From Candidatus Bathyarchaeia archaeon (GTDB taxonomy: Archaea > Thermoproteota > Bathyarchaeia > Bathyarchaeales > Bathycorpusculaceae), in NCBI GenBank assembly GCA_038883655.1, contig JAVZLQ010000001.1:96001-160000 (forward strand): DNA of 64,000 bases, in the 5' to 3' direction. Of this stretch, positions 60,196 through 64,000 are shown one piece after another (within the stretch, counting starts at the first letter, position 1; each line of letters opens with the position of its first letter). The translations under genes and the position numbers were made by a program. The notes under the pieces were generated by a model that was given only the letters and a program-made list of their open reading frames with translations, was not told the origin of the DNA and ran no database searches.

Positions 60196-62025
60196 ATGTG
60201 TGGAATATTCGGATGCGTATTAAAAGAAGGAAACGCCGCGCCGACGATTCACGCTGCACTTGAAAGGTTGGAATACCGCGGCTACGATTCAGTAGGCGAA
60301 GCAACAATTCATAACGGCGTTCTATACATAAAAAAGGACAGCGGAAAAATAGAGGAAGTTCATAAAATCAACAACTTGGACGATCTGCCAGGCAATATTG
60401 GCATTGGGCATACACGATGGGCAACCCACGGCGCGCCGCTACAAATAAACGCACATCCACATGTGGACTGCAGTGGGCAAATTGCTGTAGTTCACAATGG
60501 CATAATAGAAAATTTTGCAGAACTAAAAGCGGAACTGGAAAACCGTGGACACATTTTCAGGTCGAAGACGGACACCGAAGTTATAGTCCACCTAATCGAG
60601 GAGAATTTGAAGGCTAACCCACAAATAAGCCTCACAGAAGCTGTTCTCGAAGCCGTTAGAAGGCTTGATGGTTCATACGCTATAGCCGTAATCTACACGA
60701 AAGAGCCTGACAAAATAGTTTGTGCGAGAAATGAAAGCCCACTTGTGCTCGGCATCGGCGAAAACGCAATTTATTGCGCCTCTGACATTCCAGCCTTTCT
60801 GCCACTCACCAACAAGGTAGTCGTAGTTGAAGATGGCGAAATTGTCACGCTGTCGTTAGAAGGCTATGAAATTAGGAGGATTGTTGACTTCAGTACAGTT
60901 TTGCGTGAGCCAAAGGTTGTTGACTGGACACCTGAAATGGCCGTAAAGCAAGGTTATCCACATTTCATGCTCAAGGAGATCCACGAGCAACCAGCAGTTT
61001 TAAGAAACACGTTACGGCTTCAGGAGCACTACTTAGACCTTATGGCAACATTCCTTGATCGTGCACGCGAAGTCTTCCTCGTGGCTTGTGGGACAAGTTA
61101 CCACGCGTGTTTGGCTGCTTCCTACATGTTCTCCAAACTTGCCTTTTTGGGAACATATCCCGTTATCGCTTCAGAATTCATTGAACAGCATGGAAAGTCG
61201 GTGAACATCGACAGCACGATTTTGGCTGTGAGTCAATCTGGCGAAACCGCTGACACGTTGGCGGCTGTGAACTGTGCAAGGCAGCGGGCAGCTACAATCC
61301 TTGGACTGACAAACGTTATTGGTTCAACTCTAACGCGTGTCTCGCGAGTCTACATTGGTCAGCAGTCTGGTCCAGAAATAGGCGTAGCAGCGACAAAAAC
61401 TTTCACGGCGCAACTTTCCGTTTTAGCCCAACTCGCCCTACGACTAGCCAAAAAGAGAGGCAAAATATCACAGGATGAGATGGACTTTATCGCTGAGCGA
61501 CTGGAAAAACTACCAGAAGTCGTCGAAACCATAATCCGCACACAAGAGGAAAAGGTAAAACAGATTGCCAAAAAATACAAAGACGCTAAAATATTCTTCT
61601 TCCTTGGACGTGGAATAAGCACGGCAACAGCCTACGAAGGTAGGCTTAAGCTCATGGAAATTGCCTACGTGCCTTCAATAGCCTTCCCAGCTGGAGAAAG
61701 TAAGCATGGACCAATAAGCCTCATAGAGCCGGGCTTTCCAGTTGTTTTTATATGCCCGAAAGACGATACGCGTAAGACGCTTATTGGGAATATTATGGAG
61801 ATGAAGGCTAGGGGTGCATCAATAATAGCGGTTGTTGAGGAGGGCGACGAGGAGATAAAGGGTTTGGCTGACGATTGGGTTGAAGTTCCAAAGGGTATTC
61901 CAGACGTACTTTCGCCAATACCATTCGTGATTCCGCTTCAGCTTCTAGCCTATTACATGGCTATTGAACGTGGACACAACCCAGACACTCCGCGGAATCT
62001 CGCGAAGTCTGTAACCGTCAAATAG
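60196..62025 (+). CDS. glmS: Glutamine--fructose-6-phosphate aminotransferase
   Basis: MCGIFG, EYRGYDS, HTRWATHG, SQSGETAD and PRNLAKSVTV motifs. Confidence 0.97.
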   Translation: MCGIFGCVLKEGNAAPTIHAALERLEYRGYDSVGEATIHNGVLYIKKDSGKIEEVHKINNLDDLPGNIGIGHTRWATHGAPLQINAHPHVDCSGQIAVVHNGIIENFAELKAELENRGHIFRSKTDTEVIVHLIEENLKANPQISLTEAVLEAVRRLDGSYAIAVIYTKEPDKIVCARNESPLVLGIGENAIYCASDIPAFLPLTNKVVVVEDGEIVTLSLEGYEIRRIVDFSTVLREPKVVDWTPEMAVKQGYPHFMLKEIHEQPAVLRNTLRLQEHYLDLMATFLDRAREVFLVACGTSYHACLAASYMFSKLAFLGTYPVIASEFIEQHGKSVNIDSTILAVSQSGETADTLAAVNCARQRAATILGLTNVIGSTLTRVSRVYIGQQSGPEIGVAATKTFTAQLSVLAQLALRLAKKRGKISQDEMDFIAERLEKLPEVVETIIRTQEEKVKQIAKKYKDAKIFFFLGRGISTATAYEGRLKLMEIAYVPSIAFPAGESKHGPISLIEPGFPVVFICPKDDTRKTLIGNIMEMKARGASIIAVVEEGDEEIKGLADDWVEVPKGIPDVLSPIPFVIPLQLLAYYMAIERGHNPDTPRNLAKSVTVK

Positions 62026-62086
62026 GTTTCGCTTCAAATTTTACTTTAGGCAAATACGTTAAAAGCGCGCTAAGCATCTATTAGAT

Positions 62087-62808
62087 TTGGTGCTAAGATT
62101 GGTTGATGAGGACTGGAAAAGACTTATTGAAAGTCTAAAAAGGGAGGGAATTCTCCGCTCGCCTAACGTGATAAGGGCAATGCAACTGCTTCCAAGGGCA
62201 AAGTTTCTTCCAGAAAACATGCGATCCTACAGCGCTGTTGACACGCCTCTTCCAATTGGCTTTGGGCAGACCATATCCGCGCCACATAGCCTCAGCGCAA
62301 AAGCTGAGCTAGGCGAAACATGGTTTCAATAATGAATGAAGCCCTACAATTGGAAGCGGGACAGAAAGTGCTTGAAATAGGCGCTGGCAGCGGATGGCAC
62401 GCAGCAACAATAGCCGAGATCGTTGCGCCGAGCAACGCGCCGCGAAGTGAGTGGGGACACGTGTACACGGTGGAAATAATCCAAGGACTAGCTGAGTTTG
62501 CAAGAAAAAACATCATGAACGCTGGGTACGGCGACCGTGTAACAATAATATGCGCAGACGGATCGCTGGGATATCCGGAAAAAGCGCCATACGACAGAAT
62601 CCTAGTAACCGCGGCAGCGCCAGCAATTCCAAAACCTCTAATGGAACAGTTAAAGTCAAATGGAATAATGCTAATCCCTGTTGGAAGCGTACACCTATTC
62701 CAAAACCTAATAAAAGTGACTAAAGGTGTTGATGGAAAACTGCGGGAGGAAAACCTCGGCGGAGTAGCCTTTGTCCCGCTCACTGGACGCTATGGACACA
62801 AATATTAG
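62087..62808 (+). CDS. pcm: Protein-L-isoaspartate O-methyltransferase, interrupted by a 32-nt BHB intron (exons 62087-62285 and 62318-62808)
   Basis: ORF 62087-62332 gives D.PLPIGFGQTISAPH; ORF 62320-62808 gives MV..MNEAL...VLEIGAGSGW...APYDRILVTAAA...FVPL. Removing 32 nt joins them into a 229-aa protein. Confidence 0.92.
62286..62317 (+). other. Putative bulge-helix-bulge (tRNA-type) intron in pcm mRNA
   Basis: Central helix CGCC/GGCG, 3-nt bulges ACA and AAA, intron stem TAG(C)CTCAGC/GCTGAGCTA, exon pairing ACCAT/ATGGT. Confidence 0.85.
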
Positions 62809-62811
62809 ATT

Positions 62812-64000
62812 TTAAATACTTTCCAGTTTTTCTTTATAAGCCATCAAGTCCAAGAAGCCGTGTCCACTAATGTTCATGCATATCACTTTTTCCTCGCCAG
62901 CCCTTTCAGCCTTTAACGCTTCGTCTATTCCAGCGCGTATGGCATAGCTTGATTCTGGCGCTGGCAGCCACCCTTCGCTTTGAAGGAAAATTTTTGCTGC
63001 TTCAAATATCGCCTTTTCATCTGTAGGATAGGCTACAGCCTTAACTATGTTGTGATGCCTCAACATGCTTATGATTGGCGCTGCTGCATGGTATCTCAAA
63101 CCATCCGCCTTTATTGGAGGCATTTCTGTTTTGTGTCCAAGAGTGTAAACCTTTATGAGTGGTGTGTGTTCCGCAACGTCGCCAAAATCATATTTGTACT
63201 CGCCCTTAACAAGGTTTGGTGCCGCAAGCGATTGGGCAGCCAAAAATTCGCATTCACGTTTTCCCTTTAATACTTCGCCGATGAAGGGTAGGGCTATGCC
63301 TCCGAAGTTTGAGCCTCCGCCTAAGCAGCCCACAATCAAATCCGGCTTTTCATCGATTAGGTCAAACTGCTTAATAGTTTCAAGTCCTATTATAGACTGG
63401 TGCATTAACACGTGATTTAAAACAGAGCCTAAACAGTACACGCAACCCTCATGTGTTTCGGTATATTCCAGTCCCTCCGAAATCGCAATTCCAAGCGAAC
63501 CCGGATGCGCAGAGTTTTTGGAAAGCGTCTCCCTTCCGATGCTTGTTTCTTTGCTTGGCGAAGCGTAAACCTTGGCGCCCAAGAGTTTCATCAAAGTTCT
63601 TCTGTCAGTTTTCCAGTCATAAACTGATTTAACCCAAAAAATTACACATTCGAGACCCAAAAGCCTAGCCGCATAGGCTAGTGCCGTTCCCCACTGCCCC
63701 GCGCCAGTTTCGGTGCTTAAAGTTGTTTTTCCCTCTTTTAACGCGTAATATGCTTGAGCAACAGCTGTGTTCGTTTTATGAGAACCTGTTGGAGACAAAT
63801 CTTCACGTTTATAATAAAGCCTAACCTTTTTCAAGCCTAACCTTTTTTCTAGGCGTTTTGCACGGTAAAGCGGGCGCGGTCTACCCATGTGAATATAAAG
63901 TTCACGAATTTCTTCGGGTATTGGAATCCACCCTTCACTTGACATTTCCTGCCTTAAACATTCTTTAATCATGGTGCGAGCCAAATATTCCATGCGTGAA
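62812..64000 (-). CDS. trpB2: Second TrpB2 paralog, 5' end outside the window
   Basis: GSHKTN, ETGAGQWG, GSVLNHV and DGLRYH motifs; the frame stays open to the window edge. Confidence 0.93.
   Translation of the reverse strand, partial: SRMEYLARTMIKECLRQEMSSEGWIPIPEEIRELYIHMGRPRPLYRAKRLEKRLGLKKVRLYYKREDLSPTGSHKTNTAVAQAYYALKEGKTTLSTETGAGQWGTALAYAARLLGLECVIFWVKSVYDWKTDRRTLMKLLGAKVYASPSKETSIGRETLSKNSAHPGSLGIAISEGLEYTETHEGCVYCLGSVLNHVLMHQSIIGLETIKQFDLIDEKPDLIVGCLGGGSNFGGIALPFIGEVLKGKRECEFLAAQSLAAPNLVKGEYKYDFGDVAEHTPLIKVYTLGHKTEMPPIKADGLRYHAAAPIISMLRHHNIVKAVAYPTDEKAIFEAAKIFLQSEGWLPAPESSYAIRAGIDEALKAERAGEEKVICMNISGHGFLDLMAYKEKLESI

Follow-up and report, generated by a model that had tools for sequence, protein, structure and literature searches.

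What separates the two halves of a protein-repair gene whose coding sequence breaks off inside a conserved motif and resumes, a few tens of nucleotides later, in another frame? The question is raised by pcm, the gene for protein-L-isoaspartate O-methyltransferase (PCMT), in a 64,000-nucleotide stretch of DNA from a Candidatus Bathyarchaeia archaeon (C1:96001-160000; hereafter the window, with position 1 as its first letter). The genome is a 1.42-Mb metagenome-assembled draft of 19 contigs, 93% complete and with 6.5% contamination, and the closest named public records that encode this protein, at up to 93% identity, carry titles of metagenome-assembled genomes of Candidatus Bathyarchaeia or Bathyarchaeota without exception. 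An initial annotation of the window had proposed that a bulge-helix-bulge (BHB) intron at 62286-62317 splits the gene. The reading frames, the split of the Pfam match and the fold bear this out, with all of its coordinates and letters correct, and we conclude that 62286-62317 is very probably an archaeal tRNA-type (BHB) intron within the coding sequence of the sole pcm gene of this genome.

Results

Two reading frames encode one methyltransferase

Translation of the pcm locus with table 11 gives two open reading frames (ORFs). The first (62087..62332, 81 amino acids) runs as far as GQTISAPH and then continues for 14 unrelated residues, its C-terminal end being ...GQTISAPHSLSAKAELGETWFQ before the stop; the second (62320..62808, 162 amino acids) lies in another frame and starts with MVSIMNE. 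Exon 1 (62087..62285, plus strand; the start codon is uncertain, TTG 62087 being the first listed), when translated to 62285, matches the Pfam PCMT profile PF01135 with 45.9 bits over profile positions 4-59, and exon 2 (62318..62808, plus strand, stop codon 62806-62808) matches it with 146.3 bits over positions 61-208 of 210. Across both exons there is a full-length profile match above the curated cut-off of 20.3. The interruption falls inside ISAPH|MV at profile position 60: the last base of exon 1, C 62285, is the first base of the His codon, and exon 2 opens with the AC of that codon followed by ATG GTT. Removal of 62286-62317 in silico leaves a 229-codon frame with no stop, and the 229-residue product aligns with five intronless orthologs without a gap across the junction, at 73-80% identity. 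A second pcm was not found in this genome, where the next best match has an E value of 8e-4.

The insert folds into a BHB-like structure

The minimum free energy (MFE) fold of 62262-62332 (71 bases) reaches -25.2 kcal/mol, compared with -15.4 +/- 2.5 kcal/mol in shuffled sequences (z -3.9), and none of 200 shuffles was as low. It contains a CGCC/GGCG helix, a 3-nt ACA bulge, a 9-bp inner hairpin and an outer helix formed by 62268-74 and 62320-26. All elements lie on the plus strand. The 5' strand of the central 4-bp helix, CGCC (62280..62283), consists of bases 2-3 of the Ala codon and bases 1-2 of the Pro codon and pairs with GGCG (62312..62315) near the 3' end of the intron. It is followed by the 5' bulge ACA (62284..62286), with the predicted cut at 62285/62286, and its partner strand by the 3' bulge AAA (62316..62318), with the predicted cut at 62317/62318; the predicted 32-nt intron (62286..62317) extends from nucleotide 3 of the first bulge through nucleotide 2 of the second. 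The inner hairpin (62287..62311) has 9 bp, one bulged C and a GCAAAA loop. In the outer pairing, the exon-1 side (62268..62279) contributes AGACCAU (62268-74), which pairs with AUGGUUU (62320-26), and then the unpaired bases 62275-78 and G62279; the exon-2 side (62319..62326) begins with C62319, with which G62279 can pair.

A BHB motif has a 4-bp helix between two 3-nt bulges on opposite strands, and this arrangement is present here, the clean 3' bulge AAA forming only with the G62279-C62319 pair, in which case 62275-78 bulge on the opposite strand. The strict hBHBh' form, in which both flanking helices have at least 2 bp directly at the bulges, reportedly goes back to Marck and Grosjean in 2003; the insert departs from it in its outer helix.

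An insert at the same codon is widespread and probably old

A search with exon 2 in 41 related genomes found the gene in 39, with strong matches in 37. The search yielded 30 loci, 25 of them with an insert at the codon interrupted here and 5 continuous, reading GCN CCN CAC|ATG GTN. Together with 80 loci from a named collection this makes 110 pcm loci, 95 with an insert at the same codon and 15 without. After removal of duplicates, 86 of the 100 distinct related loci carry the insert and 14 are precisely intronless; the intronless alleles read GCN CCN CAY|ATG, which is the exact predicted splice product. Comparison of relatives for presence, absence and compensatory base changes had been put forward as a check on the intron, and it came out in the intron's favour, with the hairpin and an exon-intron pair covarying as described below.

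Sampled genomes were also scanned with the pattern GCRCCWCW-N18-48-GGYGANACATG, the same pattern read backwards serving as control. Of 401 Bathyarchaeia genomes sampled, 97 contain the pattern and 5 the control, and of 401 genomes sampled across the phylum, 44 contain the pattern and 9 the control, 29 of these 44 being in Bathyarchaeia; all such counts are lower bounds, since the pattern is narrow and some genomes have no pcm. Within Bathyarchaeia, the majority of families in the window's order have it, as do some families elsewhere in the class (f20, for instance, in 5 of 7 genomes). The phylum-wide scan gave 15 matches outside the class, and of the 7 loci that were translated, 4 prove to be pcm interrupted after ...GQTISAP, from families f46, f57 and f61. 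The other 3 are chance matches, and a fourth genome has one of those chance strings. With these discounted, the pattern matches 11 of 336 genomes outside the class, in three families (f46, 6 of 6; f57, 3; f61, 2).

A quick maximum-likelihood tree built from exon 2 (100 rows) places the 14 intronless genes in nested positions among those with the intron. It requires at least 6 state changes, at least 2 of them forced by well-supported branches, and its deepest branches, from other families of the order, all have the intron. The simplest reading is that the pcm intron is old and was lost precisely several times; this is a gene tree with an arbitrary root, with which gains or transfers are also compatible.

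Three genomes or groups stood out in these scans. In genus g17, which belongs to the window's family, the pattern was found in 1 of 40 sampled genomes, and the only g17 genome searched with the protein (G019, 100% complete) gave no strong pcm match; pcm itself, rather than only its intron, may have been lost in this genus. Genome G391 has two pattern matches on different contigs, both looking like genuine pcm introns, as if the bin contained two strains or two copies of the gene. Genome G008 also has two matches (C50:95042-95095), the second of which resembles a chance match.

Both exons are constrained and the helices covary

The 84 distinct intron sequences are 28-40 nt long, and inserts of up to about 55 nt occur in other orders. 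Their length modulo 3 is 1 in 41 sequences, 2 in 37 and 0 in 6. The rarity of multiples of three (6 of 84) could reflect shared ancestry or selection against inserts that a ribosome can read through. In the last 60 codons of exon 1 (83 intron-bearing relatives) the diversity at the three codon positions is 0.175/0.132/0.50, and in exon 2 (85 intron-bearing relatives) it is 0.16/0.09/0.53, with no stops in either. By this codon-position pattern both pcm exons are under purifying selection, and pcm resembles cbf5 in having a coding frame that is interrupted with both of its parts under selection.

Base pairing was examined in two alignments, A1, a MAFFT alignment of 84 sequences, and A2, which holds 61 sequences (35 A1 rows, 6 further loci and 20 from the pattern-match list). 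In A1, 89.5% of the cells are paired, against 25-37% when the partners are slid by 1-3 columns; double changes occur in 9 of 18 pairs, and none of 500 shuffles reaches the observed pairing or covariation score. In A2, whose 20 pattern-match rows were chosen partly for being variant and whose proportions are not population frequencies, 94.3% of the cells are paired, and over A1 and A2 together the slid controls give 25-40%. The central helix is 100% paired in A2; only one of its pairs (pair 2) varies, being GC in 47 sequences, AU in 11 and GU in 3, and no sequence leaves it open. In the inner helix, pairs one to four reach 99.2% pairing and show 4-5 pair types apiece. Pair 2 of the central helix links an intron base (GGCG/GGTG) with the Ala codon of the exon at its third position (GCG/GCA), and all the pcm-like matches with GCA (9 in the Bathyarchaeia list and 6 in the phylum list) have GGTG and none has GGCG, in a search pattern that permitted all four combinations. 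Bulge lengths are constant in 84 of 84 sequences. The G-C pair beside the 3' bulge never varies, although coding constraint also acts on each of its two bases. Compensatory change thus supports the base pairs of the BHB structure. The insert is a relaxed rather than a strict BHB motif, because its outer helix consists of one G-C pair, 4 unpaired bases and 5 bp that are 84-85% paired; this imperfection had been noted in the initial annotation, and both the fold and the alignments confirm it.

Relatives place the predicted cuts

The splicing endonuclease is described as cutting between nucleotides 2 and 3 of each bulge (PMC2738675). Applied in silico, this rule yields ...SAPHM... in 84 of 84 sequences, compared with 3 of 84 when both cuts are shifted by -1. 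The proposed cuts AC^A and AA^A, which were to restore A-P-H-M-V, are supported in silico by this result and by the 229-codon frame. In the window itself, cuts shifted by +1 or +2 give the same protein, and the window alone cannot place the site. The relatives fix it, because many of them have a TCT or ACT 5' bulge, or a G after the bulge (L028, for example), and regain His (C + AC) by the canonical cuts only, the +1 and +2 shifts giving Leu or Gln. The middle base of the 3' bulge is variable (A 64, G 13, T 4, C 3; n = 84) and the third, which is the second base of the His codon, is invariant in the 84 sequences, a pattern that fits the predicted canonical cuts.

In the proposed mechanism, the exon CGCC of the pre-mRNA would pair with GGCG near the 3' end of the intron, leaving a 3-nt bulge on each side and the rest of the intron as a hairpin. 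The splicing endonuclease would cut both bulges between nucleotides 2 and 3, and RtcB would join the exons, restoring the His codon (C+AC), the invariant ISAPHMV motif and a methyltransferase of 229 residues. The excised intron would be released as a small linear or circular RNA. That this cutting and joining takes place in the cell we infer from the sequences compared here.

The genome encodes a crenarchaeal-type splicing endonuclease

The initial annotation had suggested that the imperfect exon-side helix may need an EndA of relaxed specificity. The genome encodes two proteins with both EndA domains, and an intact RtcB. EndA paralog 1 (C1, about 274.1-274.7 kb) is closest to the crenarchaeal catalytic subunits 2cv8, 3p1z_B and 2zyz_B (E 1e-32 to 1e-43), from the enzymes of Sulfolobus tokodaii, Aeropyrum pernix and Pyrobaculum aerophilum. 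Its alignment has a single 1-residue gap across S. tokodaii residues 30-45, the region of the extra loop (S34-S44) described as specific to Crenarchaea by Yoshinari et al. (PMC2724299). EndA paralog 2 is closer to the Methanopyrus and Methanocaldococcus enzymes. It has Thr at the position of the His in the GIEHAP of paralog 1, a residue that we take to be catalytic; one of the two A. pernix entries has Ala at the aligned position, which is consistent with this role. Paralog 2 is probably a structural subunit, and by these alignments the EndA of this organism probably assembles as a heterotetramer in which a crenarchaeal-type catalytic subunit combines with the histidine-less structural one. 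The abstract of PMC5829648 names heterotetrameric and epsilon-2 enzymes as the sole EndA types that cut non-canonical introns.

The gene for paralog 2 (L112 1228-1785; C1, about 196.8-197.4 kb) is followed after 17 bases by a 429-codon ORF in the same orientation (L112 1802-3091, the pair reaching to about 198.7 kb) that looks by eye like a histidyl-tRNA synthetase, an arrangement reminiscent of the endA-trpS1 operon in Haloferax (PMC7714728). ARAGORN, run with introns permitted, called 39 tRNA genes, 15 of them with introns, and some of these calls are doubtful. The calls include a 90-nt intron in tRNA-Trp and several introns at unusual positions, and the anticodon calls aaa, atg and agc resemble mis-parsed intron-containing genes.

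No further mRNA intron stands out in this genome

More micro-introns had been expected among the apparently frameshifted genes of this lineage; a scan restricted to one motif found none further in this genome. The motif combined a 4-bp helix with a 3-nt 5' bulge and an inner stem of 4 bp or more, canonical excision joining the frames, and relaxed introns could escape it. It gave 109,769 matches, of which 4,353 join open frames and 1,003 remained after a longest-frame filter, mostly ordinary gene junctions. Among the 253 ORF-joining BHB-like candidates of up to 80 nt in the 1.42-Mb genome, the pcm intron ranks first by hairpin energy per base, and none of the others makes a convincing mRNA intron under this strict motif. 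A cbf5 gene was not found in this genome either: TruB_N (PF01509) had no match, the matches of TIGR00425 were weak and partial, the best two falling in its C-terminal part (positions 234-315), and cbf5 may here be unassembled, very divergent or broken up.

Public reads and contigs at the locus

A search of public runs found no RNA run with this DNA. In two contig sets that are probably DNA, X1 and X2, no 32-nt skip appears over 61600-63100. Nineteen metagenome contigs matching an IUPAC exon-junction motif were rejected as spliced copies: they belong to distant alleles that lack the intron, none of them more than 82% identical to a collected locus. One X2 contig joins 61722 to 62318, the predicted first base of exon 2, with only 23 letters on one side and possibly unknown letters in between; its source could be a relative, intronless or spliced, or the contig may be chimeric. 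Summed contig depth at 62314-62364 is 480 in X1 and 432 in X2, against 10-100 elsewhere, presumably because the start of exon 2 is near-identical in many co-occurring relatives.

Surroundings of the locus

Upstream of pcm lies a 609-codon ORF that resembles GlmS by eye, and the other neighbour, on the opposite strand, is a 393-codon ORF that resembles a TrpB-type enzyme by eye. No homing-endonuclease gene adjoins pcm, and the window holds no tRNA gene and no Rfam match.

Discussion

Weighing of the intron against other explanations

Several observations weigh against a BHB intron in pcm. No spliced pcm RNA was seen; at 90% likeness, a raw RNA run (X3) gave 0 reads for 61600-63100. The MFE fold has, on its 3' side, an internal loop (AUCCG 62275-79 opposite AAAC 62316-19) in place of a clean 3-nt bulge, and the exon-side helix is non-canonical, with one G-C pair and 4 unpaired bases before the 5-bp helix, the middle pair of which is unpaired in 61 of the 84 A1 relatives. 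The covariation controls leave shared ancestry in, and the partial choice of A2 rows for being variant has been mentioned. Finally, the conserved ATG at which exon 2 could start (62320) is two bases past the predicted splice site, and the stop of the 81-amino-acid ORF overlaps the 162-amino-acid ORF, which by sequence alone would allow separate translation.

One proposal accepts the intron and gives it a use. The intron would be ancient, predating Bathyarchaeia, and would have been retained because its splicing is used, tying the output of the repair enzyme to tRNA-splicing activity or to temperature-dependent folding of the motif, and the excised RNA might have a role of its own. An origin before Bathyarchaeia is suggested because at least three families of other classes have the insert at this very codon. 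If the regulatory proposal were true, unspliced mRNA would give only the 81-residue fragment, and this would be regulated mRNA splicing in a prokaryote. The initial annotation had likewise raised splicing as a control point for protein-repair capacity, for which we find no support; there is no sign of any function of the pcm intron beyond its need to be removed, and we regard a regulatory use as unlikely.

A second explanation dispenses with splicing: pcm would be a split gene whose 81- and 162-amino-acid polypeptides are translated separately and assemble with each other, the hairpin being incidental or coupling the two translations. The overlapping ORFs, the nearby ATG and the lack of observed spliced RNA speak in its favour. 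That ATG, however, is the Met of ISAPHMV and is present in intronless genes too. Separate translation leaves unexplained why the exon-intron helix is kept by compensatory changes (GCG/GGCG to GCA/GGTG), why the bulges are exactly 3 nt and why the third base of the 3' bulge is an invariant A next to a variable second base. The tail encoded by the insert would vary between species in sequence, length and frame, and variants that do not read His without splicing (TCT bulges) would lose this invariant residue. We consider a split gene highly unlikely.

Less probable again, and by our estimate remote, is translational recoding, in which ribosomes would bypass or frameshift over the hairpin and make the full-length protein from unspliced mRNA. 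Bypassing has a precedent in the hop in gene 60 of phage T4, a stable hairpin directly follows the break, and the full-length protein is clearly selected. The locus nevertheless has no matching take-off and landing codons, and the skipped length would vary over 28-40 nt (up to about 55 nt in other orders). Conservation lies in the geometry of an EndA substrate and not in a slippery site, and the genome encodes the splicing enzymes. That the insert is a sequencing or assembly error, which the initial annotation had named as grounds for giving up the intron, or that pcm is a decaying pseudogene, can be set aside as next to impossible, for even in a metagenome-assembled draft (93% complete, 6.5% contamination) such an error is contradicted by the recurrence of the insert in about 100 independent assemblies with differing hairpin sequences and by its presence in a 147-nt X1 contig from an independent public run (62187-62333), and both error and decay by two exons that are under purifying selection and have no stops.

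Comparison with known mRNA substrates of RNA splicing enzymes

A BHB intron in pcm, the reading we retain, has its nearest counterpart in the cbf5 pre-mRNA intron, which is said to have been described by Watanabe in 2002 and by Yoshinari in 2006. The initial annotation had named cbf5 as the well-known case of an archaeal mRNA intron, in agreement with PMC7714728 and PMC2738675. According to Schwarz et al. 2020 (PMC7714728), the only further BHB intron reported was that of cbf5 mRNA, while Yokobori et al. (PMC2738675) refer to a Sulfolobus rudivirus paper and a book chapter for unconfirmed predictions of BHB introns in other genes. Our literature searches, whose coverage left out most subscription journals, found no published pcm intron. 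It appears that pcm joins cbf5 as a second family of archaeal protein-coding genes in which a BHB intron is conserved.

Like the cbf5 intron of Desulfurococcales and Sulfolobales (PMC2738675), the pcm intron is short, interrupts a coding frame and lies within the codon of a residue in a highly conserved motif, the interrupted codon being that of the catalytic Asp in cbf5 and that of the His of ISAPHMV in pcm. The two also share a relaxed BHB motif with predicted cuts at the 2/3 bulge positions and a patchy presence with intronless relatives (PMC2738675), and the hetero-oligomeric EndA of the cbf5 hosts probably has a counterpart here. They differ in the gene, pcm being a protein-repair methyltransferase, and in the lineage, which here is Bathyarchaeia and three families of other classes. 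Splicing of cbf5 has moreover been shown by cDNA and in vitro cleavage, whereas the pcm intron is known here from sequence alone.

The likeness extends to archaeal pre-tRNA introns, which form BHB or bulge-helix-loop motifs: both have a 4-bp helix between 3-nt bulges, a 5' exon paired to the 3' end of the intron and presumably the same EndA and RtcB. Unlike pre-tRNAs, the host mRNA can be read by ribosomes before splicing, and its outer helix is coding sequence and is interrupted. In Haloferax volcanii the tRNA splicing endonuclease acts on the mRNA of HVO_1309 (PMC7714728), as predicted for pcm, but the HVO_1309 site is in the 5' untranslated region and interrupts no reading frame. A further parallel is provided by the unconventional splicing of HAC1 and XBP1 mRNA by IRE1 in eukaryotes (PMC13149111), in which a protein endonuclease cuts sites borne on hairpins, a tRNA ligase joins the ends and the frame changes. 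The nuclease there is a different one and is regulated by stress, whereas no regulation is indicated for pcm.

In animal XBP1 splicing this ligase is RtcB, the enzyme that would join the pcm exons. Translated with table 11, pcm comes out as two ORFs in these genomes; gene callers blind to the intron will report a truncated or frameshifted gene, and metabolic reconstructions may count the enzyme as absent. The finding also raises again the question of how ribosomes are kept off unspliced mRNA when transcription and translation are coupled. The pcm series provides a natural set of exon-intron covariation for the study of recognition by endonucleases of relaxed specificity. With an intron at one codon of pcm in about 100 genomes and in more than one class, splicing of mRNA by the tRNA machinery would no longer be a one-gene curiosity in archaea.

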